Shown here piece after piece: positions 9,609-53,396 of a stretch of DNA of 64,000 nucleotides. The DNA is taken from the NCBI GenBank assembly GCA_934167485.1, contig CAKPKL010000003.1:7153-71152 (forward strand), in the 5' to 3' direction. A program made the translations under genes and the position numbers. The stretch is from an uncultured Bacilli bacterium. GTDB taxonomy: Bacteria; Bacillota_I; Bacilli_A; RF39; UBA660. The notes under the pieces are model-generated. The model was not told the DNA's origin and searched no databases. It was given only the letters and a program-made list of their open reading frames with translations. Every line of letters begins with the position of its first letter. The first letter of the stretch is position 1.

Positions 9609-9612
9609 TAAC

Positions 9613-10455
9613 CTATATTTTATATTTACTATAGAATTTATCTATTTGAGATTTTTTATTTGTACTTATTTTATCTTTAAATAACTTATCATATTCATAT
9701 TTAAGAACTGTTATATGTTTTGCATCTACATCATTTGTTGGATACATTGTTATAATATCATTTGTATTTGGAACTACTACAACTTTTATAAAATTATACA
9801 AATCTCCAGCACTACTTCCTATATTTGAAACACTAAAATAATGCACTTCCAACATATCTCTTTTATTGGCTTTATTTTTATTATCTATTTGATCTCTTAC
9901 TATATTAAATAAATATTCTAAATCAATATTCTTATTAAAATAAACCTGATTATTATCTTCATTACTTGATATATGATCACTTATATGTTCTAAAGCTAGA
10001 TTTGAATCATAATTTTGTATTTGACTTTTTAACATATCACATCTATCGCCCATTTTAAAATTACAATACATTCCTAATTGTTTTTTCATAACTAATTCAG
10101 ATATAGCAAGTGAATGACCTTTTATTCCCTCTTTACCGTATAACATTGGAAGAAGTTCTAAGGCTTCATTATACATATTTAGGTGATAATATAATAAATA
10201 TAATTCTAGCATAGCATACTCATTATCTTTATATTTAATAGCTTTTGAAAGTTCATTTAACGCTTCATTATACATTTCTAATTCTCTATAAGCCTTAGCC
10301 CTCATAAGTAGTATTTTTTTACCATTATCGCAATAACTCATAAACTTTTCTGATGCTTTCAAAAAATTAGAATATTTACCAGTTTTATATAAATTAACTA
10401 ATCTTGTATAAAAATTATCGTTGATTCTTCTTTTACTAAATTCACTATTACTCAT
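9613..10455 (-). CDS. TPR-repeat-like protein
   Basis: Repeated A..Y.E/AL..L..A helical motifs (AKAYRELEMYNEALNELSKAIKY...YNEALELL). Confidence 0.45.
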   Translation of the reverse strand: MSNSEFSKRRINDNFYTRLVNLYKTGKYSNFLKASEKFMSYCDNGKKILLMRAKAYRELEMYNEALNELSKAIKYKDNEYAMLELYLLYYHLNMYNEALELLPMLYGKEGIKGHSLAISELVMKKQLGMYCNFKMGDRCDMLKSQIQNYDSNLALEHISDHISSNEDNNQVYFNKNIDLEYLFNIVRDQIDNKNKANKRDMLEVHYFSVSNIGSSAGDLYNFIKVVVVPNTNDIITMYPTNDVDAKHITVLKYEYDKLFKDKISTNKKSQIDKFYSKYKI

Positions 10456-18762: not shown

Positions 18763-19773
18763 TTAACCCCTATTTATATCACTTTCTAAAATTTCAACTA
18801 CAGGTCTTACACCATAATATGTAGCATCGTTATATAAAGTACTAAGGCTTTCATCTCCTTTTACAACAGCTATTTCTGTTGTTGAAGTTGCAAAACCTAA
18901 CCAATAATATCCTGATGTCCAAGTAAGTGTTGAATCAAAAGTTGAAGTTTTAGTTGATGTATTATATTTATATCCTAAAACAAGTGCTTGATCATAATTC
19001 ATCAATAAAACATTTATTACTCTAACATTTAATTGATCTTTTAAATAGGTCTTATATTCTTCGAGATAAGTCCCAATTAAACTTGATTTATTATTATATA
19101 CAAATTGATTAATTTTATCATATTTCCAGTAATTAGTATCAGAAAATTTTACGGGTCTATATACAGTTACACCTTCACTTAAATGATCATCACTCTGTAC
19201 TAAATCTTCTTCATCACCATACTTAGAATCTCCAACATTTAATGGAAATTTTGTAAGCATTGATATTCTACCATTAACATTTTCAATAACATAAAATTTT
19301 TCAAGGCCACATGTAACTTCATCACTTAAATCAATTTCGTTATTTGAATTTGAATCTGTAAATGTACAAACAGGAGTATATACAGGTGAACATCCTGTTA
19401 CATCTTTTGGATCTATTTCATATTTTGTATTTAAGGTACCATAGCCAGTATTATTTGATGTTATTTTTATTTTTATTGTATCAGAAATAGGCTCATTAGT
19501 TCTAGAATCAATTAGCTTTGAATCTAGTAATCCATACTCTTTTAAATCTAAAACTGTAATATATTTACATTCACCACCATCAGGTAATTTATCTATATTA
19601 TCTGCTCCCCAAGTTTCTGCAGATGATTTAATTAAAGCTAATTGATTATCATATAAATCTTTTTTACTATTTTTAACAACTTTTGTAATAGAAGTTACTG
19701 ATAGTAATGCTAATAATGAAATAATTACTATAACAGCTAACAATTCTACTAAAGTGAACCCTTTATCTTTCAT
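18763..19773 (-). CDS. type IV pilin-like protein (large paralog, 336 aa)
   Basis: MKDKGFTLVELLAVIVIISLLALL class III signal. C-terminal YGVRPVVEIL motif shared with paralogs. Confidence 0.7.
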   Translation of the reverse strand: MKDKGFTLVELLAVIVIISLLALLSVTSITKVVKNSKKDLYDNQLALIKSSAETWGADNIDKLPDGGECKYITVLDLKEYGLLDSKLIDSRTNEPISDTIKIKITSNNTGYGTLNTKYEIDPKDVTGCSPVYTPVCTFTDSNSNNEIDLSDEVTCGLEKFYVIENVNGRISMLTKFPLNVGDSKYGDEEDLVQSDDHLSEGVTVYRPVKFSDTNYWKYDKINQFVYNNKSSLIGTYLEEYKTYLKDQLNVRVINVLLMNYDQALVLGYKYNTSTKTSTFDSTLTWTSGYYWLGFATSTTEIAVVKGDESLSTLYNDATYYGVRPVVEILESDINRG

Positions 19774-19832
19774 ACATAATCCTACTTTCTATAAATATAT
19801 TATATAAAAAAAAAATACTTTTTGCAAGTATT
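19774..19832 (-). promoter_or_regulatory. promoter TTGCAA-17-TATAAT with a T10 homopolymer inside the spacer
   Basis: Minus strand ttgcaaaaagtatttttttttttatataat (A10 on + at 19806-19815), then RBS AGGA and ATG. Confidence 0.5.
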
Positions 19833-21104
19833 TTAATCTTTATATTCAAATTCATAATCTAGAATACGTACAGTATCTCCTTCTTGTATTCCCATTTCCT
19901 TTAATTTGTCATCTATTCCAAGTTTTCTTAACTTTTTAGAAAATCTCATAAATGCTTCATCACTAGCAAACCATGTCATTTTTAAAATCTTTTCAATTTC
20001 ATCTCCAGTAACTACAAATGTATCTCCATCTTTATATATTTTAAATGGTTGTTCACGTTTAAATTTATATAAAACATGACTTTCAAATTTTTCTTCTTCA
20101 TATAAAGGTTGTTTCTCTATTTTGTCTAACATATCTGCTAATTTTATTAAAACTTCATCTATTCCTTTACCAGTTGCAGCACTTATTTCATATACATCTT
20201 TATTAATTTCTTTTTTAAATCTTTCTAGGTTTTCTTCTGAACCTGCTACATCCATTTTATTAGCTATTATAATTTGTGGCTTATCTAATATTTTTTTATT
20301 AAAATCTCCTAATTCTTTATTAATAATTTTATAATCTTCAACAGGATCTCTTCCTTCAAAGGCACTCATATCAATAATATGTGCGATTACTCTTGTTCTT
20401 TCAATATGTTTTAGGAACTTATCTCCTAATCCTTCTCCTAAAGATGCTCCTTTAATAAGACCTGGTAAATCTGCAACTACAAATGATCTATTATCTTTAG
20501 TTTTTACAACCCCTAAATTAGGAGTTAAAGTTGTAAAATGATATGCTGCTATTTTAGGTTTAGCTGCACTTATTTTACTAATGAAAGTACTTTTACCTAC
20601 ACTAGGCATACCAACAAGTCCTACATCTGCAAGTAATTTAAGTTCTACTTTTACTTTTTTTTCTTCTCCAGGTTCACCATTTTCACAAAATGCTGGAGCT
20701 GGATTATTTTTAGTCGCAAAAGCAATATTTCCTCTACCACCACGACCACCATAAGCAGCCACTACTCTATCTCCTTTTTTTGTTAAATCACCAATTATTA
20801 AATTAGTATCTACATCTGTTATTACCGTACCTACAGGAACTTTTATAACTAAATCGTCTGCATTTTTACCATTACATGCTTTTCCTTCTCCATGATTACC
20901 TTGTTTTGCTTTATATATTTTTTTATATCTTAAATCAATTAAAGTATTCAAACCTTCATCAGCTTCAAAAATTATATTTCCACCATGTCCACCATTTCCA
21001 CCAAATGGTCCACCCATCTCAATATATTTTTCTCTTCTAAACGCCATACAACCATTCCCACCACGGCCTGCATTTAATTCAATTATAACTTCATCTACAA
21101 ACAT
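19833..21104 (-). CDS. obg: GTPase Obg/CgtA
   Basis: Glycine-rich Obg fold N-terminus MFVDEVIIELNAGRGGNGCMAFRREKY...GGNGGHGG. G-domain GMPSVGKST and DLPGLI. 423 aa. Confidence 0.9.
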   Translation of the reverse strand: MFVDEVIIELNAGRGGNGCMAFRREKYIEMGGPFGGNGGHGGNIIFEADEGLNTLIDLRYKKIYKAKQGNHGEGKACNGKNADDLVIKVPVGTVITDVDTNLIIGDLTKKGDRVVAAYGGRGGRGNIAFATKNNPAPAFCENGEPGEEKKVKVELKLLADVGLVGMPSVGKSTFISKISAAKPKIAAYHFTTLTPNLGVVKTKDNRSFVVADLPGLIKGASLGEGLGDKFLKHIERTRVIAHIIDMSAFEGRDPVEDYKIINKELGDFNKKILDKPQIIIANKMDVAGSEENLERFKKEINKDVYEISAATGKGIDEVLIKLADMLDKIEKQPLYEEEKFESHVLYKFKREQPFKIYKDGDTFVVTGDEIEKILKMTWFASDEAFMRFSKKLRKLGIDDKLKEMGIQEGDTVRILDYEFEYKD

Positions 21105-21135
21105 AAAATCACCTCCTTAATTATACAATAAAAGA

Positions 21136-22317
21136 CTAAAAATTAATAGTCTTTTTATTTCTTTCTTTTTGATATCTTTTTTCATATATACAAATATTTT
21201 CATCGTCTTCATAATTGAAACCAAGTTTTTCTAAAAATTCTTCTTCTGAAAATATTAATTCATTATCCAAAATAACAAGATCTCCTTGCCCTAACTCATC
21301 ATCGATATCACCATTATAATTAATCGCACTACTAACAGGATCAATTTGATTATCAAAATATACTTTATTAGATTTTTCTAATCTTCCTATATTTGATGGA
21401 TAACAGTCTATCCAAACAAGGCCTTCATCTCTTAATTCTTTATAAACTTGATAGGCATCCTCATAAGTAATATTACCAGTTTCTACTTTTTCAGTTATTT
21501 CAATATAAAATAAAGTACCAGCAAATACACTATTAACTTTCTCTCTCAATAAAGGGCGTAAAAATCTTTTATTATTCTTAATTTTAAAACCCAGTCTACC
21601 TCTCCCTAATTTTAAAATCTTATTACCAATTTGATAAACTCGAGAACTTCCTCCTTCCCCTATTAACCTTATATCAGAGCAATTAACATTTTCATATTTT
21701 AAAACCTCTTTTATTATTTCATTAAAATATGGCATTATTTTTTCTTCTTCTATTCTTTTTGTATTAATATTTAAACTAGATTTTAATATATTTCTCAAAT
21801 AAATATATTGGTGCTTATCTATATATTCAGTTAATTTATTATAAACTTCATCATTCTTTTTAAATAAATCTATATAACTTATAAGTTCATCAAAGTTTAA
21901 AACAATATAATCGATATTATTATATATATCTAAAAAATTTTCATTACAACAAGCATCATATATTAAATAGTTTAATACATTAATAGAACTTTTATTTTTA
22001 AAACATGCCTTTAAATATTCATTTAAATCTATATTATTTTTCTTTAAAAAAGATAAAATATTTACGCATAAAATCTTACTAAACCCTAAATTTACTAATT
22101 TAATAAAATTTTTTGGATTAATAAAATTTATATCAATTTTTAATAGTTTTTTTATAATATAATTTAATGTTATGTTTTTATAATTTTTTACAATAATATC
22201 TATATTCTTCCAAAACAAATTATTTTCTATAACAAAAGCACAATTATAATCGTTTTGAAAATAATTTAGAAAAACTTCATTACTTTTAGATTCTAGTGCT
22301 TTATTAAACTCATCCAT
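21136..22317 (-). CDS. hypothetical protein with possible atypical protein-kinase-like C-terminal domain
   Basis: IRLIGEGGSSRVYQIGNKILKLGRG (Gly-rich loop plus Lys), LVWIDCYPSNIG (catalytic-loop-like D....N), GQGDLVILDNE (DFG-like). Weak. Confidence 0.35.
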   Translation of the reverse strand: MDEFNKALESKSNEVFLNYFQNDYNCAFVIENNLFWKNIDIIVKNYKNITLNYIIKKLLKIDINFINPKNFIKLVNLGFSKILCVNILSFLKKNNIDLNEYLKACFKNKSSINVLNYLIYDACCNENFLDIYNNIDYIVLNFDELISYIDLFKKNDEVYNKLTEYIDKHQYIYLRNILKSSLNINTKRIEEEKIMPYFNEIIKEVLKYENVNCSDIRLIGEGGSSRVYQIGNKILKLGRGRLGFKIKNNKRFLRPLLREKVNSVFAGTLFYIEITEKVETGNITYEDAYQVYKELRDEGLVWIDCYPSNIGRLEKSNKVYFDNQIDPVSSAINYNGDIDDELGQGDLVILDNELIFSEEEFLEKLGFNYEDDENICIYEKRYQKERNKKTINF

Positions 22318-22463
22318 AAAATCCCCTAAATAATTATACTATATTTTAAAAGAAAATTATATCTTTTTTATACTATTTATAAATTTCATATAATTACTTT
22401 ATATTGTTTTAAAAAAAATTTCTATGATACATCATAGAAATTTAATAATTTTGTTTCTAATAT

Positions 22464-23531
22464 TTATTTTAATTTAGATTTTAAGACAGTTATAACAGGG
22501 CGAACGCCATTGTTGAACGCAAGATCACCTTCACCATCTTCATTGTCAACATTGCCATAATTTAAAACACCATAGTAGCTCACAGCCCAAGCAAGATTAT
22601 AATTGCCAGAATATGCTGTTCCTGTCCAATACCCTTCTATATTAGAATCCGACACGTTGCATCCATAACTTGTACAATTATGTGTATTATCAAATAACCA
22701 TGCATATTTATTTGTCCCAGCATCTCCTTCATATTCTGATTCTGAATTCGTATGTAATATATAGTATTGACCACCAGCATTCCATGTTGTGTTTTCAGTA
22801 ATTTTTGCTATTTCACTTGCTTCTATTAATCTTGGACTTAAACTTGCATCCCATGTACTTGTATCACTTTTTAGTTGTGCGATTACTGTTAATGGACCTT
22901 TGTTATTATTTCCAACGTCACCATAATCACTTTCTGTTCCTCCTGCTGCTATATAGTCATCTTGTAATACCCATGCCACCTTTGTTGTAGTATTATGATC
23001 TAGGATTAGATTTACTTTATCTCCACCATCATCATTGAAAGTATAAAACTTCATACATCCATCTTTAACACCTGTAATACTTTGAGATTCTGTATAATTA
23101 TCACAAGTCTTACCTGTTGTTACATCAAAATATACTACTCTTCCATTATAATATATTATATTGCCATATGTATAATCTACATCCTTGTCACTTACACTAC
23201 AATTTTCTAAATAAATATGCCCTTTATTTGATATTACTACATCACATATCGTTTTAGCTCCATCATAATCTACCTTTATTGTTGTTTCTCCTTGAGTTAA
23301 TATTTTACCATCAGTAGTCGTGTATTTTCCACTTGGTACAGTATTTCCGTTTAGTTGTGCTTTTGCTACTGAGTTTTCTACTGCATCTGCATATAATTCT
23401 ATACTTCTTTTTATACTAGAATTCTTACTATCTTCTATTATATCTAGTACTATTGGTGTAGCTATTAGGGCAATTATAGCTAATATTACTATTACTGCTA
23501 ATAACTCTATTAATGTGAAACCTTTCTTCAT
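22464..23531 (-). CDS. type IV pilin-like protein (large paralog, 355 aa)
   Basis: MKKGFTLIELLAVIVILAIIALIATPIVLDII. C-terminal block CMKFYTFNDDGGDKVNLILDHNTT...GVRPVITVLKSKLK shared with 28221..29600. Confidence 0.75.
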   Translation of the reverse strand: MKKGFTLIELLAVIVILAIIALIATPIVLDIIEDSKNSSIKRSIELYADAVENSVAKAQLNGNTVPSGKYTTTDGKILTQGETTIKVDYDGAKTICDVVISNKGHIYLENCSVSDKDVDYTYGNIIYYNGRVVYFDVTTGKTCDNYTESQSITGVKDGCMKFYTFNDDGGDKVNLILDHNTTTKVAWVLQDDYIAAGGTESDYGDVGNNNKGPLTVIAQLKSDTSTWDASLSPRLIEASEIAKITENTTWNAGGQYYILHTNSESEYEGDAGTNKYAWLFDNTHNCTSYGCNVSDSNIEGYWTGTAYSGNYNLAWAVSYYGVLNYGNVDNEDGEGDLAFNNGVRPVITVLKSKLK

Positions 23532-23553: not shown

Positions 23554-23582
23554 ATTATACTAAAAAAATATAGATTAATCAA
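23554..23582 (-). promoter_or_regulatory. sigma-A-type promoter TTGATT-17-TATAAT (repeat-element copy B)
   Basis: Minus strand ttgattaatctatatttttttagtataat, followed by aggaggataacATG of the pilin-like gene. Confidence 0.6.
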
Positions 23583-23601
23583 TAACCTATATTTTTTATT
23601 A

Positions 23602-28220: not shown

Positions 28221-29600
28221 TTAATTTAATTTGGATTTTAAAACCTCTATTACTGGACGTACTCCATGATAGTCCGAATCATCAACGGTAAAGCGGTTAT
28301 CGATCAAACCACTTAAATCTACATACCATGCATAGTTAATATCTCCAGCACTAGAAGACACACTCCAATAACCATGCATATATGATGTTGTTGTTGAATC
28401 AGCATTATTTAAACATCCATAGTCTGTACATGATATATGTGTTCTATCATATAACCATCCATATTGACATCCTGTAGTATTTCTTCCCTCTGTGCATGTA
28501 GAACTTTCTGTTGTTGTTTTACTATCAAAATAATAAAAATCTGTTGCAGTTGTCTCATCCCACTCTGTGTTTCCTGTTATTTTCGCTATTTCATTTGCTG
28601 TTATTATTCTGGCTTTATAATTATTATAATCTACTGTATAATCAGTATTTGTGTAATTTGATGGAGTCTCTGTTCCTTGCCATAAATATGTATCTGTTTT
28701 AAGTTGTGTTAATACTTCATTTGGTCCTGATGTGTTCCGTCCACTTGAGTTCCATGCAATAAGTGCTGTAGTATTATGATCTAAGATAAGATTTACTTTA
28801 TCTCCCCCATCATCATTAAATGCATAAAATTTCATACATCCACTATTTACTCCTGTATTACTTTGTGTTTCTGTATAATTTGAACACTTAGTTCCTGTAT
28901 CCACATTAAAGTATACAACCTCCCCATTTTTAAATGTTTTTATTTCTACACCATTTATTGTTATTATTACTTTGTCAGTTGCTTTTGACAATATCAACGT
29001 TCCTGTTGTTTTATCCCAGGTATATTGTGCCCCTATTACTGTTATATTATCAGGTAAATTATATCCTTCTGGTGCTTTAAAAATTAATGTTTTTGTCTCT
29101 ATATTTTTTATTTGTACTTCATTCTTACTATCACTATTTATATTTGTTAGTTTAAATTCTATATCATACAGTTTTATTTTAGACAACAAATATTCATTTT
29201 TATCTTCATCATACTTAATATAATATCCAGACATTATTAGTGTAGTATCTCCTATTACTGTTCCATCTGTTATAAATATTATTCCACTTGTTGGTTTATT
29301 ACCTTTTACATCTATCTTTATTTCTGTTTCACTACATTTATTATCTACCAATTCGTTTGAGCATATATTCCCATTATTCATGATATAATACTTTCCATTT
29401 TTTATTACTTTACCATTTAAATCTTCTAATGATATTGCTTGTTCTACTCCATTTAAATAATTTTTTACACTTATTTTTATACTTGCTTCTTTACTATTAT
29501 CTATTATATCTAGTACTATTGGTGTTGCGATTAGGGCGATTATCGCTAGTATTACGATTACTGCTAGTAATTCTATTAAAGTAAAACCTTTTCTTTTCAT
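28221..29600 (-). CDS. type IV pilin-like protein (large paralog, 459 aa)
   Basis: MKRKGFTLIELLAVIVILAIIALIATPIVLDII. C-terminal CMKFYAFNDDGGDKVNLILDHNTTA...GVRPVIEVLKSKLN. Confidence 0.75.
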   Translation of the reverse strand: MKRKGFTLIELLAVIVILAIIALIATPIVLDIIDNSKEASIKISVKNYLNGVEQAISLEDLNGKVIKNGKYYIMNNGNICSNELVDNKCSETEIKIDVKGNKPTSGIIFITDGTVIGDTTLIMSGYYIKYDEDKNEYLLSKIKLYDIEFKLTNINSDSKNEVQIKNIETKTLIFKAPEGYNLPDNITVIGAQYTWDKTTGTLILSKATDKVIITINGVEIKTFKNGEVVYFNVDTGTKCSNYTETQSNTGVNSGCMKFYAFNDDGGDKVNLILDHNTTALIAWNSSGRNTSGPNEVLTQLKTDTYLWQGTETPSNYTNTDYTVDYNNYKARIITANEIAKITGNTEWDETTATDFYYFDSKTTTESSTCTEGRNTTGCQYGWLYDRTHISCTDYGCLNNADSTTTSYMHGYWSVSSSAGDINYAWYVDLSGLIDNRFTVDDSDYHGVRPVIEVLKSKLN

Positions 29601-29643
29601 ATTATCCTCCTTCTTTATTTTACTTTTGTAAAGATACCAAAAA

Positions 29644-29688
29644 ACACAAAGAAACCTAGAGTTTTATTCTCTAGATCTTTGTGTTTAT
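29644..29688 (-). terminator. intrinsic terminator / attenuator hairpin inside the 5' leader of pilin-like gene 28221..29600
   Basis: Minus strand cacaaagatctagag-aataaaa-ctctaggtttctttgtg then ttttt. It lies between the poly-G upstream ORF and the pilin RBS. Confidence 0.5.
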
Positions 29689-29720
29689 GTATTCTAATAG
29701 TATTATAGTATAATTAGATA

Positions 29721-29730
29721 CCCCCCCCCC
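29721..29730 (-). repeat. homopolymeric poly-G tract (10 nt) inside an upstream ORF (start 29770) ahead of the pilin-like gene
   Basis: C10 on +. Flank aaaaataatgcct[G10]tatcta. Upstream ORF begins atgaagatatcattaagaaaaaacaataaaaataatgcctgg (MKISLRKNNKNNAWGGG). Confidence 0.8.
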
Positions 29731-29796
29731 AGGCATTATTTTTATTGTTTTTTCTTAATGATATCTTCATATACTACCACTACCTTTACTATATTT

Positions 29797-29825
29797 AGTA
29801 TATATTTTTATACACTATTTGTCAA
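29797..29825 (-). promoter_or_regulatory. consensus promoter TTGACA-17-TATACT for the poly-G leader and pilin transcript
   Basis: Minus strand ttgacaaatagtgtataaaaatatatact, then RBS aaaGGtaGtGG and upstream-ORF ATG at 29770. Confidence 0.55.
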
Positions 29826-29835
29826 TATTTATATT

Positions 29836-29880
29836 AAAAAAATATAGGTTATTGATTAATCTATATTTTATATAAAAGCT
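29836..29880 (+). repeat. third copy (C) of the ~35-bp pilin-promoter element, in inverted orientation and with a degenerate -10
   Basis: + strand aaaaaaatataggttattgattaatctatatttt matches copies A and B, then diverges (atataaaagc instead of tttagtataat). Points toward the 3' end of ORF 29879..30418. Confidence 0.55.
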
Positions 29881-30418
29881 ATTTTAATTTAATAAGTACA
29901 TATATACTTTCTATTAGTGATAATACCTCTGATATAAGTAATAACAACCCTGCTGTTGTTGCAATTGTCATAATTGATGTAAATGGATTAATTATTAATA
30001 ATATACCTAATACTATCATAAGTATAGTAAGTATTACTAACCATATATATTCTGTTAATATTGTACTTAAATTAATAGATAATTGTAACTTAAATAAATT
30101 ACTAACTATTATCCATATACCTAATATTATTGGAAATATATTTATTAAGTCCATTCTATATATAAATATCATTATACCTGATATAAGTGTAATTAAACCT
30201 AATAATAAATCAAAACTAAATAATCTAGATTCATGTGACATTGTAAAGTATGAAACAAAATAACCTATACCATTTATAAACATAATAATAGAAAATATTA
30301 TTACAAATACTTCTAAAGATTTTAATGGATTAATTATTAAAAATATAGAAAGTATTATCATTAAACTAGATATTATTATTGAATAGCTTTCACATCTTTT
30401 TATATATTCTTTTATCAT
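29879..30418 (-). CDS. integral membrane protein, hypothetical
   Basis: 179 aa, about 6 predicted TM helices, no conserved motif recognised. Confidence 0.4.
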   Translation of the reverse strand: MIKEYIKRCESYSIIISSLMIILSIFLIINPLKSLEVFVIIFSIIMFINGIGYFVSYFTMSHESRLFSFDLLLGLITLISGIMIFIYRMDLINIFPIILGIWIIVSNLFKLQLSINLSTILTEYIWLVILTILMIVLGILLIINPFTSIMTIATTAGLLLLISEVLSLIESIYVLIKLK

Positions 30419-37132: not shown

Positions 37133-37288
37133 ATATTACCTCCTGGTAAAATATATGTCAAAAAAAAAATATTAGACTAATTACTAATATTTAGTGGGTT
37201 CAATTTAATTATATCACTAAAGAATTCAAAATAAAAGACTATTATTATAAAAATTAAATGTGCTATAATTAAAGAGAGCCTAGAGTAA

Positions 37289-39316: not shown

Positions 39317-39682
39317 CTTAGGAGTATATAATAAGATGACATAGTTCTAAAACCGGCTACTGTTAACACCATAAATAGCCTTCGTTTCAATACCATTTAA
39401 GATAACATAGTTCTAAAACTATCAACATTATTATTTCTATCATCTATATGTTTCAATACCATTTAAGATGACATAGTTCTAAAACATAGATATATATGTT
39501 TAATTGATTATAAATGTTTCAATACCATTTAAGATAACATAGATCTAAAACAATCAATACCGGCTTCATCCATAATTAATAGTTTCAATACCATTTAAGA
39601 TAACATAGATCTAAAACAATCAATACCGGCTTCATCCATAATTAATAGTTTCAATACCATTTAAGATAACATAGATCTAAAA
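39317..39682 (-). CRISPR. type II-A CRISPR array: 5 full 36-bp repeats plus 1 degenerate terminal repeat, 5 spacers of 30 bp (two identical), leader at 39683-39765
   Basis: Repeats at 39383-39418, 39449-39484, 39515-39550, 39581-39616, 39647-39682 (gtttcaataccatttaagat[a/g]acatag[a/t]tctaaaac). Degenerate copy at 39317-39352. Spacers 39551-39580 and 39617-39646 are identical (aatcaataccggcttcatccataattaata). Confidence 0.9.
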
Positions 39683-39765
39683 CCTCAAATCATAAATCTA
39701 TACCCATATTATCATAGAGAAAATAATATTTTATAAATGGTATTTTTCTATGTCTATTAAGTTTA

Positions 39766-40437
39766 TTATAACATGAATTCATCTAAATCTTCATCAATAA
39801 TTAACTTTTTTTCATATTCAACAGTTGTTCCATAAGTTTGTGAATCTATTAACAATAATTTTATTTCGTTATAAACGGCATATTTATAAAATTCAATTAA
39901 TTCTGTTTTATTTAAATATTGCTTTAAATTAACAAATATTAGGATATTTTTAGTATTTAATGCTTTTTCCAAATCTATTAACAATAATAGATTATCTAGT
40001 AACTCATTATTGTAGTTGATAGATAATTTAACAAGCTTTGTTAAATTATCTATTGTTACATTCTCTTCAATATTTAATGGTAAATCAATATTATTTAGTA
40101 TTCTTTTATATAATTTAATAATTTTATTATATAAGTTAAATAAATTGTTTCTATCACTCTCATCTATGTTTTCATTAACATACTTTGATAAATCATTAAT
40201 ATACTTTTTTGAATCAAATTGAAAATCAAAAAAATTTATAAATATTTTTATTTTACCATTTAAATTTTTTTCTTCATCTTTTTTGAAAAAAGAAATATTA
40301 TCTGAATATCCAATATTATATATAGAATATAAGTCATTAACAAAACGATAAAAGTAATTTTTGTTTTCTATTTCTATAACATTAACACTATTTTTTAAAT
40401 CAATAGTATTATCTATATAATTAACCTTCATATTCAT
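39766..40437 (-). CDS. csn2: Csn2 (type II-A CRISPR-associated)
   Basis: About 220 aa, Lys/Asn-rich, last gene of cas9-cas1-cas2 before the array (II-A synteny). 4-nt overlap with cas2. Confidence 0.7.
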   Translation of the reverse strand: MNMKVNYIDNTIDLKNSVNVIEIENKNYFYRFVNDLYSIYNIGYSDNISFFKKDEEKNLNGKIKIFINFFDFQFDSKKYINDLSKYVNENIDESDRNNLFNLYNKIIKLYKRILNNIDLPLNIEENVTIDNLTKLVKLSINYNNELLDNLLLLIDLEKALNTKNILIFVNLKQYLNKTELIEFYKYAVYNEIKLLLIDSQTYGTTVEYEKKLIIDEDLDEFML

Positions 40438-40754
40438 AATATAATCAATCTATCCTCACTATTAACTATTTTAGTGTTACTTTCTCCTATTATATTTTCT
40501 ATTTGTGAATATTGTTTTTCTGTAACAGTTAACACTTGTATTAATCCTTTTTTAGGAGCATTTTTTCTAAGTCTTTCAACTAATATATTGGATTGCTGAG
40601 AATTAAGGACAAGTTTAGAGTAAACAGATTCTTGCATCATAATAAAACCTTCACTCAATAAATATTTTCTAAACTTTAGATAATTTCTTTTATCTATTGC
40701 ATAAATATTTGGTAAATCAAAAAACACCATTGTTCTCATAACTCTATCCCTCAT
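40434..40754 (-). CDS. cas2: Cas2 (true start probably MRTMVFF, about 40736)
   Basis: MVFFDLP...[27 protein letters not shown]...LTVTEKQYS matches type II Cas2. Confidence 0.85.
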   Translation of the reverse strand: [106 protein letters not shown]

Positions 40755-41616
40755 AATAAATAAATTCCTTATACCTATTTATATCGTTTATAGAATCTAA
40801 TGTATTCTTAACAAAAAATTTTATTATATCTTTTAAAGTGTAATTCTTTCCAAGATATTTATATGTATTGTTAAATATGTTTACTATATCTAATTTATAA
40901 TTGGTATCTAATTCTCTATCTTGATTATAATATACAAAATTATCAATAATTACTCTAAATGGTTCCATTAAATCACAAGTTAGATTAAATTCATTAAATT
41001 CATTTTTATGGTGTATTCCAAGTTGTGTTAAATAACCATTACTTACAACTTCTTTATTAACTGTAGAAAGCAAAATAGCATAACCATAATTAAGAGCTGC
41101 GTTAATATTGTCTTGATGATTTCTAACAAAGTGCATTCCATATAATGCGTTAAAATATACTTTTGCAGAATGACCTTCTCTATTAGTTTTATCGCCTGGC
41201 ACTACATCATCAACATAACTTAAAACAAGTTTATATTTATCTGAGTTAATTTTTTTCAAAAGACTAGCTTGATTAAGTATTTTATTTTTTACAATTTTTT
41301 CCCATAACAAATCTTTTTTAGACACTTTCCAAGATATTTGCTCTTTTATTTTCTTACTAGTATTGTGTCGTGAATAATAAGAAGATAGTTCTCCAAATGG
41401 ATTATGTTTATCATCACAAAAAATAATATTTATTTTATTATCTGACAATTCTTTTAAGAGATAAGCAGAAATAGATACAGATATTGAATCTACAATTATT
41501 GTATCTATTTCTGATAAATGAATATATTTTTCATCATTGTCTTGTTTTACAACTAAAAACCTATTCTTATAATTTATCTTTGATTGTCTAGTAATTACAA
41601 CTGTTCTAAAACTCAT
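40744..41616 (-). CDS. cas1: Cas1 integrase
   Basis: MSFRTVVITRQSKINYKNRFLVVKQ...HLSEIDTII...IIFCDDKHNP...EGHSAKVYFN...MEPFR match type II-A Cas1. Confidence 0.9.
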   Translation of the reverse strand: MSFRTVVITRQSKINYKNRFLVVKQDNDEKYIHLSEIDTIIVDSISVSISAYLLKELSDNKINIIFCDDKHNPFGELSSYYSRHNTSKKIKEQISWKVSKKDLLWEKIVKNKILNQASLLKKINSDKYKLVLSYVDDVVPGDKTNREGHSAKVYFNALYGMHFVRNHQDNINAALNYGYAILLSTVNKEVVSNGYLTQLGIHHKNEFNEFNLTCDLMEPFRVIIDNFVYYNQDRELDTNYKLDIVNIFNNTYKYLGKNYTLKDIIKFFVKNTLDSINDINRYKEFIYYEG

Positions 41617-44600
41617 ACGTAGTTTCCTTTATACCAGTTACTGATTGATTATAAACTATAGCGTGTTCTATAATCCTATTACATTTCTTTCCAAAAGCCA
41701 TAGAATAGTTTTTATCTAAAAATTTTAAATTGGCATTTATACTATTACACCTTAATAACCCTAATAGTTGAATTACTAACATTTCTTTATTTTCTAAAGT
41801 ACAATTAATATTATCATCTATAATTTGTCTTAATTGTTCTGCTAAATTATTGTATAGTTTATAAGTTGTAGCTATTTTATTATAAATAGCTTCTATTAAT
41901 GACTTAATATTCTGCTCATAACTTACATCATCTATAGCATTTTTCTTTTTATTCAATAAACGATTTAGAGTATTTTTGTATTTTATCATGTCTGATTTAT
42001 TAATAGATAATTCTAACGAATTACAAACTTCAACTTTATCTGTTGCACCAACCAAACTACATATTTGTTCATTCCAATCCAACTTAGTAAAGAAAGGAAT
42101 AGGTTTAGAAATTATTTTATAATTATCATTATCTTCTAATGATAATAAATTTTTAATATATTGTTCTTTTAATAATTCATTTTTAACTTTATCTATATAA
42201 ATAGGTATTCCTATCATCTTTTGCGATTCTTTTCCATTTTTAGTAAATCTTACAACAATAGCATAAGATGGGTTTAAACTTGTATATGACCCATATAATT
42301 TAGTAGGCATATTACCTTTTAATGGTACTCCACTTTGTCCTTTTTTATTCTTTGTTTGATTATATAACTCACCTGTTTTTATTTCTGTTTTTTTACTTAT
42401 AAGAATATCATTTCTATAATAAGTATTTTCTATATTTCTGTTAAATTCAGAAGCCTCAAACAATACTTCTCCAGTTTTCTGATCAACTAAGTTTCCAGTA
42501 ATTTTATTAACAACATCACTTAATTCATTATCTAATGAATTAATAACAAAACCATAGTTTAGTTTTTTATAATCTTTCATTTTTATTAAATATGCATTTA
42601 TTTCTTTTACCATATCATAATTTAAATTTTTCTTCATGAATTTTTCTTTATATTCACCTAGTACTGCAGTTAAATATGCATCAAAAGCATGATGATAATC
42701 ATTTAAATCTCTAAATTTATATAATTCATATCTTTCTCTATAATTATGAGATAAATTAGCTTTTAAATAAACAATTTTGGTATCATATAAATTCTTTATT
42801 ATGTTGGCTACATGTTTTGTTATTTGTCTAGTTTCAACTAATTGTCTATTAATAAATCCCTGAATATCTTCATCTTTATATGCTTTTCTTGTTAATCTAT
42901 AAAACTTTTTAGCTGACATAAGATTTATTTTTTTTAAATGTTCCCACCATCTTATCATATTTGTCGTCCTATAGTTTTCTGGTAACACTAATTTATCTTT
43001 TTTATTTTGATTATAATCTCTATAAACAAGTGCTTTATTATCAATTGAATCATCCTTAATCAAACTTTGAGGTAATATATGATCAACCTCTACACTATTT
43101 GTTTTTAAGTCTTCTATATTAATTGATTTACCAGAATATAAACATTTTCCTTCTTGAATGAAATACAAAAATAATTTTACAGAATCTATCTTTTCTTGTT
43201 GTTTTAATTCTTTTTCTATTTTTAGTAAATTACCATTATATTCATCTACATTTTTCTTGGCTTCTGCATATATTTTTTCTAGATATTTCTTTCTATCATC
43301 TCTACGCTCTTTTTTGCCATCTTCTCTTGCCATTTCTATCATAACAGTTTTAGGTTTATATCCCATTATTTTTATTATCTCGTCAACAACTTTTAATGAT
43401 TGATATATTCCCCTTTTTATTGCTGGAGAAGTTGCTAAATTTTCTACTAATGAATAATTTAATTTAATATTTCCACTTACATTATTCTCTTCATTAATTT
43501 TATCTTGAAATTTATATTTATCATTATTTATTATTTGAATAAAATTCTCTTCTGTTTCATACATTAAATCTATAATTGATTTATTGATACCACTTTTTTC
43601 ATCTTTATAATAAATATCTTTTAATAGTTTTCTTGATAGTTCTCCCCATCCACTATATTTTTTATTAATTATTTTGTTTATTTGACTATCATTTAATTCA
43701 ACATATTTATTTCTAACTTTTTTCTCTAATATATCTTTATCATCAAAAATAGTTATCCATTCTATTATTTCATCAGCAGCTTCTTCATTATAAGAAGTTC
43801 CAACAAATATTCCATCATCTCCATAAAAATCGATATATGATTGCATATTATTAGCAAACTTACCATCCGCAGAATAACCGGTAACATTAATATCATTTTC
43901 AAACATTTCAAAATCTTTTGAAGAATGAATATATTCTTTGAATTTTTTATCAGTAATTGAACCTCTAGTTTTCATAAATAAATCAGTAAGTATTTTGTTT
44001 TGAATATCATTATCTATTTTATTTCCATTTATTTTAATTTGTTTTAATTCGTTCAATACTTTAAATTTACAATAAAGTATGGAATTATTAGCTAAAGCGT
44101 CTTCTTTTAATAAATAAGTACATTTTGATGTCATTCTTTTTATAAATTTCTCTGCCGTTGTTTCTTTATCAATTACTTCATCAAAGTTATAAGGTGTTAT
44201 TTTAACATTATCTTTTCTTTCTAACCATGCAAACTTACTTTTTTTATTTAATGGACCAATATAGTATGGAATTTTAAATTCTAATAATTTTGTAATTTTA
44301 TATTCATCATTTACTTTATCTAATAAAAACGGATAATATTTACCTTGATTTTCTATTATTTTAATTAATTCATTCATATTTATTTGATAAGGATATTTCC
44401 CATTTTCAGAATTAGTAATTCTAGGCAAAAACTCACTATTTTCTAATCTTAATTTATTTTGATTATATTTTTCTATTAAAGATACATTTGTAATCTTATC
44501 AAATAATTCAGGAAAATAACTATCTAATTTCTTTTTAAATTCATCTACTGTTATTTTATTGTGTATATACTGTTCATATATGCAAATATATTCTTTATCT

Positions 44601-45670
44601 TTCTTAGTAGCTTTCTTACTTCTAAACATTTCATTATATTTTTTTCTATTATAATTGAACATTTCCTTCAATAATTTTAAATCCCTTTGATGTTCTTCAT
44701 ATTTATCTGTCATTAAATAAGAAATACTTATATAATTACGTCCTTTAAATATTTTTTTTAGAAAAACCATATCATATAATTCTTTTAATAGCTCTAAAGT
44801 ACTTAACTCATCACCTAATAATTTTTCTAAGTCATCATATTTATCATCAAAATCTGTACCACTAAAACTAATAGATATTTTATTTTCACTATCAATTGCA
44901 AATAAATCTTTAACAACAAATTTACCACCTGTTATTAATTTTCCAAATTCACTAGCAAATTTTTTATTTTCTGAAATATCATATAATTCTTTTTTTAAAT
45001 TTACTTTAATATCATTTTTAGATTTATCCATTATTATATTTTTTAATTCTTCATAATCAATTTGATTTAAAATATCTTCAGAAATATTAAGCCTGCTAAC
45101 AGTTTCTGATAGTTCTCTAAATACATCTTTTAATTTACCAACTAAATTTAAATCATTTGCATTGAATTTACCATTATATAAAAAGTTTCCTCTGTATTTA
45201 ATAATATGATGTATTGCTAAATATACTAATCTTATATCTTCTTTAGAATCATCATCAATTAATCTTTTTCTCAAATGATAAATAGTTTTATATTTTTCAT
45301 TATATTCTCTTATCTTAGCTTTTTCATCAGTGCTAAGAAAAATTGTTTTATTTATACTATCCTTTTCATGATATTTAGATTCTTGTAATTTTTGAAAAAA
45401 ATTAGGATCTACTTTATTTATTTCACCTTTAAATTCTTCTTGAAGTAATCTAATTCTCTCTCGTCTTCTAGCATATCTACGTCTAGTACTACGAAATCCT
45501 CTTCTTCCTTCAGCGGTATTTGCAGTATCAAAAAGTCTTACTCCCCATAAAGCTTTTCTGTTTTTTCCTGTACCTTTTCTAATTATTTTTTGAGTTTTAT
45601 CTTCTACTACTGCCCAACCTACAGAAGTAGTTCCTATATCTAAACCTATATTATAATTTTTCTTTTCCAT
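41606..45670 (-). CDS. cas9: Cas9 endonuclease (type II-A); start taken at MEKKNYNIGLD with RBS ttGGAGGtttgtcaaATG
   Basis: RuvC-I IGLDIGTTSVGWAVV, HNH VDHILPQSLIKDDSIDNKAL, arginine-rich bridge helix RRRYARRRERIRLL. About 1354 aa. Confidence 0.9.
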   Translation of the reverse strand: MEKKNYNIGLDIGTTSVGWAVVEDKTQKIIRKGTGKNRKALWGVRLFDTANTAEGRRGFRSTRRRYARRRERIRLLQEEFKGEINKVDPNFFQKLQESKYHEKDSINKTIFLSTDEKAKIREYNEKYKTIYHLRKRLIDDDSKEDIRLVYLAIHHIIKYRGNFLYNGKFNANDLNLVGKLKDVFRELSETVSRLNISEDILNQIDYEELKNIIMDKSKNDIKVNLKKELYDISENKKFASEFGKLITGGKFVVKDLFAIDSENKISISFSGTDFDDKYDDLEKLLGDELSTLELLKELYDMVFLKKIFKGRNYISISYLMTDKYEEHQRDLKLLKEMFNYNRKKYNEMFRSKKATKKDKEYICIYEQYIHNKITVDEFKKKLDSYFPELFDKITNVSLIEKYNQNKLRLENSEFLPRITNSENGKYPYQINMNELIKIIENQGKYYPFLLDKVNDEYKITKLLEFKIPYYIGPLNKKSKFAWLERKDNVKITPYNFDEVIDKETTAEKFIKRMTSKCTYLLKEDALANNSILYCKFKVLNELKQIKINGNKIDNDIQNKILTDLFMKTRGSITDKKFKEYIHSSKDFEMFENDINVTGYSADGKFANNMQSYIDFYGDDGIFVGTSYNEEAADEIIEWITIFDDKDILEKKVRNKYVELNDSQINKIINKKYSGWGELSRKLLKDIYYKDEKSGINKSIIDLMYETEENFIQIINNDKYKFQDKINEENNVSGNIKLNYSLVENLATSPAIKRGIYQSLKVVDEIIKIMGYKPKTVMIEMAREDGKKERRDDRKKYLEKIYAEAKKNVDEYNGNLLKIEKELKQQEKIDSVKLFLYFIQEGKCLYSGKSINIEDLKTNSVEVDHILPQSLIKDDSIDNKALVYRDYNQNKKDKLVLPENYRTTNMIRWWEHLKKINLMSAKKFYRLTRKAYKDEDIQGFINRQLVETRQITKHVANIIKNLYDTKIVYLKANLSHNYRERYELYKFRDLNDYHHAFDAYLTAVLGEYKEKFMKKNLNYDMVKEINAYLIKMKDYKKLNYGFVINSLDNELSDVVNKITGNLVDQKTGEVLFEASEFNRNIENTYYRNDILISKKTEIKTGELYNQTKNKKGQSGVPLKGNMPTKLYGSYTSLNPSYAIVVRFTKNGKESQKMIGIPIYIDKVKNELLKEQYIKNLLSLEDNDNYKIISKPIPFFTKLDWNEQICSLVGATDKVEVCNSLELSINKSDMIKYKNTLNRLLNKKKNAIDDVSYEQNIKSLIEAIYNKIATTYKLYNNLAEQLRQIIDDNINCTLENKEMLVIQLLGLLRCNSINANLKFLDKNYSMAFGKKCNRIIEHAIVYNQSVTGIKETTYEF

Positions 45671-45699
45671 TTGACAAACCTCCAATTTTTTGGTATTAT

Positions 45700-45801
45700 T
45701 AAATTGTCTTAATACCATTTAAGATGACATAGAGAGTTAAAATAAAGCTTTTAAGCCTAAATGCTCACTAAGTGTTCGAACGGTTAGCCGTTCTTTTTTT
45801 T
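45700..45801 (+). ncRNA. tracrRNA candidate, divergent from cas9
   Basis: Anti-repeat cttaataccatttaagatgacatag pairs with crRNA repeat 5'-GUUUUAGAACUAUGUCAUCUUAAAUGGUAUU. Followed by agaGUUAAAAUAAagc (S. pyogenes-like nexus) and hairpin gaacgg-ttag-ccgttc + T8 terminator. Confidence 0.6.
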
Positions 45802-45924: not shown

Positions 45925-47157
45925 TTAAATTTTCATCTTTCTTATTTTATTTACTTCAATAAGTAAAAATAACATCGCTAAAAAGCACACACAACTAAGA
46001 ACTAAAACTATAGATAGATATTTATCTTTTTCTTTCATTAATTTATCAATCATATAAGTATTATATCTTTGTACTGAATTTTCTTCTACATCATACAAAT
46101 AATAACCCTCATGACCTGTCATAGTATTAGTCGCATATATTAAATAATAATCATCTAAATCTTCTACTTTATATGCGGTTACTTCTTCTCCATTTATTTT
46201 AATTTTTTTCTTAGTATAGGAACTTTTCTTATCTTCATGAATATATAAATTCATTCTATTAAACTCATACTCTTTATATATACTGTATTTATCAGTTTTT
46301 GAATCATATGCATACAAACCTATATCCCCATCACTATTTTTTAATCCAACTAAAGTTATCTTTGTAACTTCATTATATAAAGTAGGAATATCGAAATCTG
46401 ATATCTTTACAGTATCTTCTTTATAACCATCTTTTGTACCAATCAATTCTCTTTTTTTGATGACTCTATACTTCTTACCATTTATTTCTACCTCAATAGG
46501 ATCTTTTTCTTCCATATTAGCTGTAATCTTATATGTCTTTTCATTTCCATTTTGAGCTATTACAACAATATTTATAGTATTAACGCCTTCACTTACTTGT
46601 ACCTCTCCTGCACCTTTTATAGATGCACTATTATGTTCAGCTACTGCTTTAACATTAATTTTTTCAGTTCCAGGAATAAGCTCTATAGTATATTCCAATG
46701 TATCCTTATTAAAAGCTGTGTTTAATTCATATCCATCAACACTTAAGCTTTTTAAATTATTATTACTACTATATGTTTTATTTATTTCAATTGGTTTTGT
46801 TGTACTCTTTTTTATAACATTAATTGTAATAGAACGACTTCCAGTAAATTCATTACCATCGCCATCTGAAACCTCTGTAGCATTTACAGTTATGGTAGCA
46901 CTCCCTACTTGATTAGCTGTAAAATATAAATCGACTGATGAATTTTCTAACCATTTTGAATCACCACCAGCAAGTACATTACCATTTGATGACGTTATAT
47001 CAAATCTACCAGTTAATCCACTTGCTTCAACTGTAACTTTAACACTATTTCCTACATAAACAGTAGTATTTGCATTTATACTAAAAGCATCTACTTTATT
47101 TACTCCTATAAAAATAGTTAACAAAAGTAAAAATAATATATATTTTATTTTTTTCAC
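45925..47157 (-). CDS. cell-surface protein with signal peptide, Ig/cadherin-like beta-sandwich repeats and C-terminal TM anchor
   Basis: MKKIKYILFLLLLTIFIGVNKVDA signal. LKSLSVDGYELNTAFNKDTLEYTI cadherin-like beta-sandwich motif. C-terminal hydrophobic segment then KIRKMKI. Confidence 0.5.
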   Translation of the reverse strand: MKKIKYILFLLLLTIFIGVNKVDAFSINANTTVYVGNSVKVTVEASGLTGRFDITSSNGNVLAGGDSKWLENSSVDLYFTANQVGSATITVNATEVSDGDGNEFTGSRSITINVIKKSTTKPIEINKTYSSNNNLKSLSVDGYELNTAFNKDTLEYTIELIPGTEKINVKAVAEHNSASIKGAGEVQVSEGVNTINIVVIAQNGNEKTYKITANMEEKDPIEVEINGKKYRVIKKRELIGTKDGYKEDTVKISDFDIPTLYNEVTKITLVGLKNSDGDIGLYAYDSKTDKYSIYKEYEFNRMNLYIHEDKKSSYTKKKIKINGEEVTAYKVEDLDDYYLIYATNTMTGHEGYYLYDVEENSVQRYNTYMIDKLMKEKDKYLSIVLVLSCVCFLAMLFLLIEVNKIRKMKI

Positions 47158-47167
47158 AATTTACCTC

Positions 47168-53343: not shown

Positions 53344-53396
53344 ATTTTTCCTCTTTCTATTCATACTTCCGAGTAAGGTTATTGTATAACTAGATA

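Follow-up and report, generated by a model that had tools for sequence, protein, structure and literature searches.

The stretch of DNA analysed here, 64 kb of contig CAKPKL010000003.1 from an uncultured Bacilli bacterium (referred to as the window), encodes five large paralogues with the N-terminus of a type IV pilin, all on the minus strand and designated by their coordinates as genes 7655, 18763, 22464, 28221 and 51883. Three of these genes, 7655, 28221 and 51883, carry a run of 10 or 11 G residues close to their 5' end. The explanation that best accounts for the observations as a whole, and to which a probability of roughly 0.7 is assigned, is that these three genes are poly-G contingency loci with three different read-outs: a tract behind the sole start codon (type 1, gene 7655), a tract in a leader open reading frame (ORF) ahead of an intrinsic terminator (type 2, gene 28221) and a tract in a leader that can be fused in frame to the pilin (type 3, gene 51883). 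The phase-variable repertoire that a first-pass annotation of this DNA had proposed is supported by the present analysis and appears essentially right.

In the proposed mechanism, slipped-strand mispairing would add or remove G residues and shift the frame of the leader ORF. Gene 7655 would yield a prepilin only at G9 or G12. In two of the three frames of gene 28221, the ribosome would stop 30 or 19 nt before the terminator stem, allowing the hairpin to form and transcription to end (OFF or basal state), while in the third frame it would enter the left arm of the stem, no hairpin would form and RNA polymerase would read into the pilin gene (ON). The in-frame state of gene 51883 would join leader and pilin, the latter retaining a weaker ribosome-binding site (RBS) and an ATG of its own. 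With the tracts varying independently, a population would display adhesin modules on its pili in various combinations. Within this scheme we infer the rate of switching, the dependence on translation, the effect on expression, incorporation into the pilus and adhesion.

The tracts are located on the minus strand at 9517-9526 (G10, gene 7655; out of frame, OFF), 29721-29730 (G10, gene 28221; short frame, predicted attenuated or OFF) and 53397-53407 (G11, gene 51883; not fused), exactly where the first-pass annotation had placed them, and all three share the context AAAAATAAYRCCT-Gn-TA, which defines the cassette AAAAATAAYRCCT-G10/11. Runs of nine G residues give seven overlapping matches at these three loci against 0.02 expected in the window, and the shared context pattern AAAAATAAYRCCTGGGGG occurs three times against 0.12 expected. 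Each tract is situated about 20-40 nt inside a short leader ORF, which is preceded by a near-consensus sigma-70-type promoter. Beyond the three tracts, the 64-kb window contains no C or G run longer than 5 nt (that is, none of 6-9 nt), and A or T runs of at least 11 nt are absent from the whole window, against 3.7 expected from dinucleotide-preserving shuffles. The window appears to avoid long A/T runs while runs of G10-11 persist. Only two A/T runs reach 10 nt, one at 19806-19815 and one at 37160-37169, upstream of the CTP synthase gene.

Three proposed read-outs of the poly-G tract

Gene 7655 (7655-9545, minus strand) encodes a modular pilin with two DUF6273-like regions (Pfam N_methyl and DUF6273). 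Its promoter (9580-9616, minus strand; TTGATT at 9608-9603, 17-nt spacer, TATAAT at 9585-9580) is followed by a sole start codon, ATG 9545-9543, which lies upstream of the poly-G tract. At G10 the distance from this ATG to the KGFTL frame is 40 nt and the frame terminates at TAG 9509-9507; G9 or G12 restores the frame and gives the leader MRKNNAWGGVTYSKG|FTLIELL. Counted from KGFTL the protein comprises 616 aa, and the 591 aa reported in the first-pass annotation stem from an internal GTG. Because no alternative start is present, it follows directly from the sequence that the gene is OFF at G10, its present state, and it is predicted to act as a pure translational ON/OFF switch. Both states occur naturally: the protein P0257, with four member sequences from public assemblies, agrees with the predicted G9 product at each of its 629 residues (100% identity), and truncated gene calls of the OFF type, starting with MDIITDSK, are likewise public (P0274, P0278, P0293). 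Relatives of P0257 start with MNKNNAWGGVTYSKGFTL, MRKNNAWGGVSYSKG and MNKNKVWGGVSYNNGFTL. In other strains the tract has collapsed to GGGG or GGG, and the leader type at the locus differs between strains.

Gene 28221 (28221-29600, minus strand; 459 aa) possesses its own RBS, GAAGGAGG, at 29613-29606 and starts at ATG 29600. Upstream of this start, promoter, leader ORF with G10 and terminator follow one another in the layout of an attenuator. The promoter (29780-29825, minus strand; TTGACA at 29825-29820, 17-nt spacer, TATACT at 29802-29797) agrees with the consensus at 11 of 12 positions. The leader ORF (29714-29770, minus strand) starts at ATG 29770, contains tract 2 and at G10 reads MKISLRKNNKNNAWGGGI before its stop codon. 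The intrinsic terminator (29639-29686, minus strand) consists of a two-part hairpin at 29686-29642 with an outer stem of 10 bp and an inner stem of 7 bp, followed by U6 (dG -19.5 kcal/mol, z = -5.3). At G10 the leader ORF stops 28 nt ahead of the terminator stem. It enters the stem only at G9 or G12, the stop codon of this long frame (TAG 29673-29671) being located within the left arm.

Such a layout has an experimentally demonstrated precedent in the pil1 and pil3 loci of Streptococcus gallolyticus, where a simple sequence repeat (SSR) in the leader-peptide gene shifts the position at which the ribosome stops (Danne et al. 2014, PMC3894217). Stops at least 28 nt before the hairpin lead to low expression, while stops within or next to the hairpin lead to high expression, the terminator being blocked by the ribosome (PMC3894217). 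By this logic gene 28221 is predicted to be attenuated at G10, because the G10 stop lies 28 nt before the stem.

The frame geometry is conserved. In a frame simulation of 11 type 2 modules from at least five species-level lineages (eight from the window clade and three distant ones), one frame only enters the hairpin, and the stops of the other two frames are positioned at -30 and -19 nt from the stem (in one case at -10). The class of the hairpin-entering frame is 3n in the window clade, 3n+2 in the distant loci L042 and L054 and 3n+1 in L052. The rule that a G number divisible by three means ON, as formulated in the first-pass annotation, therefore holds for the window clade and not for its relatives, while the antitermination predicted there for gene 28221 is backed by the conserved geometry as well as by the S. 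gallolyticus experiments. Type 2 terminators have free energies of -15 to -23 kcal/mol and z-scores of -4 to -6.7, with a run of U6-8 after the hairpin; the distant hairpins are stronger (-22.9 kcal/mol) and show a compensatory G-C to C-G change in the inner stem. One decayed type 2 copy (L030) combines an interrupted tract (GGGGAGGGGG) in the long frame with loss of the terminator U-run, which is what a locked-ON allele should look like and would fit the attenuator model.

The type 2 leader is likely to adopt a conserved fold. Its RBS segment GTAAAGGTAG (29789-29780) is complementary to ATCTTTAC (29638-29628) just after the terminator; in the fold, the segment GUAAAGGUAG pairs with ACCUUUAC directly 3' of the terminator, and the region of the leader AUG pairs with the sequence immediately downstream of the tract. 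In an alignment of eight sequences, 98.3% of the cells of the whole-leader fold are paired, compared with 43-57% when the partners are slid, and four pairs are changed on both sides, although these eight sequences represent two clades and thus essentially one event per pair. The helix formed by the RBS segment can arise in read-through transcripts only. The fold could serve as a default state that ensures termination when the leader is not translated, or as a 5' stabiliser of the read-through mRNA. As a separate observation, GUAAAGGUAG is complementary to an (A/U)CCUUUAC element downstream of the terminator in all eight pilin-linked type 2 leaders (columns 8-16/169-177 of alignment A6), and this element is absent from the protease-linked copy L027 described below.

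The leader RNA is conserved and structured, spans about 170-190 nt and combines nested helices with a terminator, and one copy controls a gene other than a pilin gene (the clostripain-family protease). These features would also be expected of an attenuator that responds to a ligand or a protein, such as a riboswitch or an antiterminator target, with poly-G tract and leader ORF being incidental. This reading is considered highly improbable. Rfam 15 gave no match at gathering score anywhere in the window, and no convincing antiterminator helix that competes with the terminator was found. Moreover, poly-G tract, RBS and ATG of the leader ORF and stop geometry are the most conserved features of the module, and in genes 7655 and 51883 this poly-G context operates through direct fusion.

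The fold also bears on whether tract length acts at the level of RNA, without switching of the DNA. RNA polymerase could slip on G10-11 (transcriptional realignment), each cell thereby making transcripts in several frames, or tract length could tune folding or pausing, and expression would then be fixed at a low level instead of alternating between heritable ON and OFF states. Polymerase is known to slip on long homopolymers, chiefly on those of A or T. In line with such an action, the tract is located in the apical part of the conserved leader helix, where CCU pairs with GGG of the tract, and most consensus states are 'OFF' while the genes are nonetheless kept intact. However, length differences in the DNA are directly observed between samples, and the periodicity of stops in the three frames is conserved while the class of the ON frame differs by clade, which points to reading by the ribosome. 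Slippage would furthermore add to DNA switching rather than replace it. An action confined to RNA is therefore regarded as quite unlikely, and contingency loci read by the ribosome remain the preferred explanation.

Gene 51883 (51883-53426, minus strand) encodes a pilin module joined to a BspA-type leucine-rich repeat (LRR) module (Pfam LRR_5 and N_methyl). Its promoter is found at 53461-53489 on the minus strand (TTGACA at 53489-53484, 17-nt spacer, TATAAT at 53466-53461) and its leader ORF starts at ATG 53426. The pilin keeps an RBS-like AAGAGGA and an ATG at 53343, with a further in-frame ATG at 53364. At G11 the leader terminates at TAA 53381-53379, whereas G9 or G12 produces an in-frame, stop-free fusion MNKNNTWGG(G)VSSYTITLLGSMNRKRKNMKKG|FTL. 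This fusion, like that of gene 7655 at the same tract lengths, had been recognised in the first-pass annotation and was confirmed by reading the sequence and by recomputation. A fused gene of 512 aa is called at G9 in one same-species locus (L015), and fused relatives are known (P0010, P0060). Since cleavage is predicted at G|F, the leader would be removed and the mature protein is expected to be identical from either start. Because the pilin keeps its own RBS and ATG and alleles with collapsed tracts apparently use the internal start, the tract of gene 51883 is probably a dimmer between high and low translation and not a strict ON/OFF switch. The view that all three genes are currently OFF accordingly stands for 7655, directly from its sequence; for 28221 it is a prediction and for 51883 it is doubtful.

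The three types appear to be related. Type 3 keeps the TATCTAGTTATAC segment that follows the tract, without its pairing partner or the terminator, and type 1 resembles type 3 minus the internal RBS and ATG; a further hybrid, MKILLRKINKNNTWGGGILYKGFTL, is also on record. This suggests that types 3 and 1 may be deletion or recombination derivatives of type 2.

A further shared feature of the pilin loci is a 21-bp element, ATAGGTTATTGATTAATCTAT, of which the window contains three exact copies against 0.03 expected. They are located at 9596-9616 (minus strand), where the element overlaps the promoter of gene 7655 and the stop codon of the upstream gene, at 23570-23590 (minus strand), at the plain promoter of gene 22464, and at 29844-29864 (plus strand, inverted), between the stop codon of a DUF308 gene and the cassette promoter. 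All three copies are thus bounded by the upstream gene's stop codon on one side and a pilin promoter on the other, and the 3' half of the element constitutes the promoter -35 box. With an A-run and ATATAG on one flank and CTATAT and a T-run on the other, the element resembles a bidirectional terminator hairpin. In relatives, other palindromes (GATTGATTAATCAATC, GATTGAAATTTCAATC) take the place of the element, which may serve as an operator or a terminator, or may mark a recombination boundary.

Poly-G tracts vary in length between samples

Within the species, and with the window included, the consensus length of the 51883 tract is G9 in one, G10 in three and G11 in seven copies, and that of the 28221 tract is G10 in seven copies and G12 in one. 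Flanking sequences are conserved. As a control, every homopolymer of at least 8 nt shared by the window and the same-species loci was compared: G tracts differ in five of 15 locus comparisons, A/T runs of 8-10 nt in none of 53. The T10 run at 19806-19815 (minus strand), which the first-pass annotation had pointed out in the promoter spacer of gene 18763 (TTGCAA...TATAAT), is indeed present but does not vary, being T10 in all four other assemblies of the locus. Type 3 tracts in the fused ON state (G9) are found on contigs of 27.7x and 35x coverage (L015, L040, L041). Four metagenome contigs (L010, L014, L021, L025) break off at a poly-G tract or no more than 20 nt away from one, an observation that is only suggestive, either of length heterogeneity within the sample or of poor sequencing through G runs.

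The first-pass annotation had staked its interpretation on the presence of the cassette, and on variation of its length, in related genomes. The cassette occurs in same-species assemblies, five times in a related metagenome-assembled genome (MAG) and in diverged species, and the lengths 9/10/11 at 51883 and 10/12 at 28221 stand beside invariant A/T controls. A scan for the exact pattern in one genome per GTDB species detected the cassette in this one MAG only. All five MAG copies display the full layout of promoter, leader ORF, poly-G tract, terminator and RBS; the cassettes are 84-90% identical to those of the window, while the flanks do not align with it. More diverged type 2 modules were reached by following pilin homologues of 50-57% identity into their contigs. 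They are present in species whose pilins show only this degree of identity (L042, L052-54), one of them on a contig of 233x coverage. Type 2 modules were also found in L032 and L033.

One of the MAG copies (L027, 1823-4111 on CAVEJT010000005.1) is a G8 cassette ahead of a gene for a 717-aa membrane-anchored protein of the clostripain family (Peptidase_C11). Because this copy precedes a protease and not a pilin, the poly-G/terminator cassette would be a portable regulatory module. The GTDB representative that bears the cassettes (L025-L029, CAVEJT01) is titled 'Bacteroidaceae bacterium', yet it has strong AGGAGG RBSs at cassettes and pilin starts. Both features match the Firmicute-like lineage of the window; probably the title is mistaken or the genome is a mixed bin.

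Cassettes and pilin genes appear to be exchanged at given loci. In the same-species contig L033, identity to the window is 98.7% over 18942-22456, after which another pilin of 335 aa with a poly-G/terminator cassette occupies the 22464 locus. Shared 5' ends, allele replacement and leader changes together point to frequent recombination among the paralogues. In L059 (2720-3000, compared with window 29800-29900) the 28221 cassette is preceded by NrdD/NrdG instead of Maf/DUF308, the breakpoint being the cassette promoter, which suggests a rearrangement by recombination between paralogous cassettes. In distant relatives (L043 1-4721, L052 361-3922, L042 3955-4845), pilin genes are located beside DUF1016/YhcG genes (PD-(D/E)XK-like), and the same loci contain duplicated 3' fragments of a tRNA-synthetase gene, so that pilin and YhcG together look like a unit of tandem duplication or insertion.

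These data bear directly on the alternative that the tracts are relics of decay, left by mutation in degenerating leaders of a rapidly evolving gene family. Gene 7655 would then have become a pseudogene by frameshift, the RBSs of genes 28221 and 51883 would support constitutive expression, and differences in tract length would be neutral or assembly noise. Such a history would account for the own RBS and ATG of the latter two genes, for the existence of collapsed or interrupted tracts, some of the assemblies being of low coverage, and for a 7655 tract that is G10 in four of four DNA copies. It would not account for the conservation of tract, leader ORF, frame geometry and terminator at 50-57% pilin identity and between non-aligning flanks, or for the window's lack of G/C runs of 6-9 nt, some of which would be expected to remain after neutral decay. 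Moreover, the exact ON form of gene 7655 is found in four member sequences, ON states are carried by contigs of 27-35x and an intact tract by one of 233x coverage, and the control homopolymers are invariant. Decay is therefore considered unlikely.

Several observations nevertheless weigh against contingency loci as the explanation. Genes 28221 and 51883 each possess an RBS and an ATG of their own, and alleles with collapsed tracts that lack the leader ATG (L006-8) apparently rely on the internal start; type 3 may thus never be truly OFF, and an OFF state of gene 51883 is unproven. At 7655, every one of the four DNA copies that could be read (window, L009, L013, L014) has a G10 tract. Among about 21 type 2 tracts, the consensus places just one in the long frame, which suits a switch that is OFF by default but would equally suit selection against the long frame. 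The predicted leader helix sequesters AUG and RBS of the leader ORF and could limit the very translation that the mechanism needs. RNA polymerase of Bacillus subtilis outruns the ribosomes, and ribosome-mediated attenuation is uncommon there. Tract lengths are assembly consensus values, several of them from contigs at only 2.5-3.3x, and since Illumina sequencing of poly-G is error-prone, part of the length variation may be artefact. Finally, the single events behind the leader covariation have to be added to these points.

A wider proposal builds on the contingency loci: an attenuator leader of about 250 nt, phase-variable and portable and made up of promoter, structured RNA, poly-G leader ORF and terminator, would have spread within a clade of uncultured low-GC gut Firmicutes, where it would control many surface genes and provide a heritable, combinatorial choice of tip adhesins, the fused and direct-start versions being decay products that serve as simpler translational switches. 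The odds of this proposal are judged to be about even. If it is true, a genome would hold five or more such leaders, mostly at modular type IV pilins but also at a clostripain-like protease. The repertoire would then be the first on a type IV pilus of a monoderm in which SSRs drive the choice of adhesin, and the leader would be the first case of leader-peptide attenuation based on a homopolymer, with a state that can be read directly from metagenomes.

Modular pilins and known switching systems

All five paralogues match the Pfam family N_methyl (PF07963) above the Pfam cut-off, with E-values of 2e-5 to 4e-8, and all five contain a class III signal peptide, [KR]G|FTL[IV]ELLAVIVI, in which a short basic leader with Gly at -1 precedes Phe at +1, Glu at +5 and the hydrophobic alpha-1 helix. 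The degenerate pattern GFTL[IV]ELLA matches these genes and one small minor pilin, against an expectation of 0. The near-identical 5' coding DNA that the first-pass annotation described for all five is common to four of them, over about 100 nt; the N-terminus of gene 18763 is the most diverged and lacks the '...ATP' part. Conversely, the central and C-terminal regions are less different than had been stated, as genes 22464 and 28221 share a C-terminal module and four of the five proteins end with a GVRPV-type motif. Pfam DUF6273 is matched by 7655 and 22464, the BspA-type LRR_5 by 51883. The two paralogues without a poly-G tract are gene 18763 (18763-19773, minus strand; 336 aa, pilin-like by Pfam N_methyl and alignment) and gene 22464 (22464-23531, minus strand; 355 aa), which has a plain promoter and combines a pilin module with a C-type-lectin-like module.

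An AlphaFold model of the 28221 protein, based on 68 homologues, reached a mean pLDDT (predicted local distance difference test) of 85. In it, a long alpha-1 helix (residues 8-61) packs against a beta sheet, and an Ig-like beta-sandwich and a C-terminal C-type-lectin-like globular module follow, that is, additional folding modules behind the N-terminal pilin module. The family profile matches solved pilins by N-terminal sequence (PilE1 8pfb, MshA, 1oqw), and DUF6273 has been called C-type-lectin-like in phage receptor-binding proteins (PMC10743442). On these grounds the paralogues are modular pilins in the sense of Raynaud et al., in which a pilin serves as carrier of a grafted ligand-binding module. 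Their size of 336-616 aa and modular build make it most likely that they are minor or tip subunits, their place in the filament being a prediction; the alternative major subunits considered in the first-pass annotation were not borne out. The architecture is very common in metagenomes, with more than 4,800 to 6,000 matches per search.

The modular type IV pilins PilB (with a vWA module) and PilC (with a lectin module) of Streptococcus sanguinis are a close counterpart (Raynaud et al. 2021, PMC8179133). As in the window, pilins with a class III signal peptide carry a bulky ligand-binding module in a monoderm with PilB/PilC/PilD-type machinery, and they are probably tip adhesins. The modules differ, being DUF6273/C-type-lectin-like and BspA-type LRR modules in the window, and five or more scattered single genes stand in place of a pil operon. 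Phase variation of the S. sanguinis pilins is not reported in the passages of PMC8179133 drawn on here.

With respect to gene control, pil1 and pil3 of S. gallolyticus are the nearest analogue of type 2. Both systems consist of promoter, leader ORF with an SSR, intrinsic terminator and pilus gene, occur at several loci per genome in a gut-associated Firmicute, and have a short-frame stop well upstream of the hairpin and a long-frame stop within it. However, the repeat is GCAGA in S. gallolyticus and mononucleotide G here, and the leader sequences are unrelated, no GCAGA repeat being found in the window leader, which makes the window system an analogue and not a homologue. The S. gallolyticus loci are sortase-pilus operons, in contrast to single modular type IV pilins and one protease gene, and the window leader has extra conserved helices. 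The window system is, moreover, known from sequence alone.

For type 1, Neisseria pilC offers the same logic. Jonsson and co-workers are said to have described, in 1991, poly-G phase variation in the signal-peptide coding region of this gene. In both cases a 5' G tract of a type IV pilus-associated adhesin is switched by frameshift and paralogues vary independently. PilC, however, is not a pilin, Neisseria is a diderm, and a version with leader ORF and terminator is lacking there. In addition, the tract in the window precedes the prepilin cleavage site, so that its product is removed from the mature protein.

In the cwpV-type switch of Clostridioides difficile, an invertible element creates a terminator in the leader. 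This switch, too, sets a surface protein ON or OFF through terminator formation in the 5' leader of a Gram-positive gut bacterium, but by inversion through a site-specific recombinase rather than by repeat slippage read by the ribosome.

DUF6273/C-type-lectin variable proteins are known as targets of diversity-generating retroelements (DGRs) and as phage 'tentaclins' (PMC10743442), and an N-terminal DUF6273 domain is annotated in the IgA peptidase of T. ramosa (PMC12402451). In the present system, diversity would arise from paralogue number, allele replacement and ON/OFF switching and not from retroelement mutagenesis; no DGR was seen in the window.

SSR frameshift switching, phase variation by leader peptide and terminator, and modular pilins are each already known. 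In the literature, no description was found of SSR switching and modular pilins combined on a monoderm type IV pilus, nor of a homopolymer version of the leader-peptide attenuator. Sortase pili of S. gallolyticus have until now been the sole documented case of the leader-ORF/terminator mechanism, which would be extended to another repeat, another pilus and a broad uncultured clade, together with a conserved leader RNA fold that has no counterpart in Rfam. For the gut microbiota, phase variation has been mapped mostly via invertible promoters, and SSR switching in uncultured Firmicutes is barely charted. Switching of adhesins by poly-G tracts would let a commensal vary its binding and its visibility to antibodies and phages without a regulator. 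ON and OFF states could be read from tract lengths in metagenomes and correlated with host, diet and immunoglobulin A (IgA) coating. For annotation, such genes carry the risk of being called truncated or from the wrong start, as has already happened in P0274, P0278 and P0293.

Host, filament machinery and neighbouring loci

The window has a GC content of about 25%, and its minus strand holds nearly all genes. Several features mark it as Firmicute DNA, among them murF, priA, obg, ppdK, ftsW, FemAB, a YlbD-like coat protein, strong AGGAGG ribosome-binding sites and a type II-A Cas9/Csn2 locus. Identical proteins are found on human gut metagenome contigs of the Hadza, MERR22 and OBRE15 sets as well as in the NCBI MAG GCA_902496155.1.

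The machinery that would process and assemble the modular pilins is encoded in the same window at 58685-63897 (mixed strands), as identified by Pfam matches. It comprises two small pilin-like genes (58685-59179, minus strand, with an N_methyl match, and 59169-59648, minus strand), an assembly ATPase (59744-61336, plus strand; T2SSE, E 3e-124), a prepilin peptidase (61365-62132, minus strand; Peptidase_A24 and A24_N_bact) and a platform protein (62137-63897, minus strand; T2SSF). Prepilin peptidase, assembly ATPase and platform protein are thus all present in the genome that encodes the pilins.

The type II-A CRISPR-Cas locus at 39379-45718 encodes Cas9 (1370 aa), Cas1, Cas2 and Csn2. Its short CRISPR array consists of 36-nt repeats (GTTTCAATACCATTTAAGATAACATAGATCTAAAAC) and 30-nt spacers, one of which is tandem-duplicated; Rfam gave no match at gathering score at this locus. 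Next to it, at 45925-49249, two neighbouring surface proteins are encoded. The first consists of a cadherin-like beta-sandwich with a C-terminal membrane anchor, and the second (693 aa) ends in a type I dockerin, which hints at surface display by cohesin-dockerin interaction in the host organism.

Two genes near the pilin loci differ between assemblies. In L034 (3561-4807) and L035 (3350-4596), which correspond to window 19833-21104, the essential GTPase gene obg carries an identical 25-bp deletion and is split into 256-aa and 140-aa parts. The two metagenome assemblies are independent and no homopolymer coincides with the deletion, which may reflect a true polymorphism, a misassembly common to both or a programmed frameshift. 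In L001 (2173-2722, corresponding to window 29879-30418), the DUF308 membrane-protein gene is called as two parts of 65 and 134 aa, while elsewhere it is intact and encodes 179 aa.

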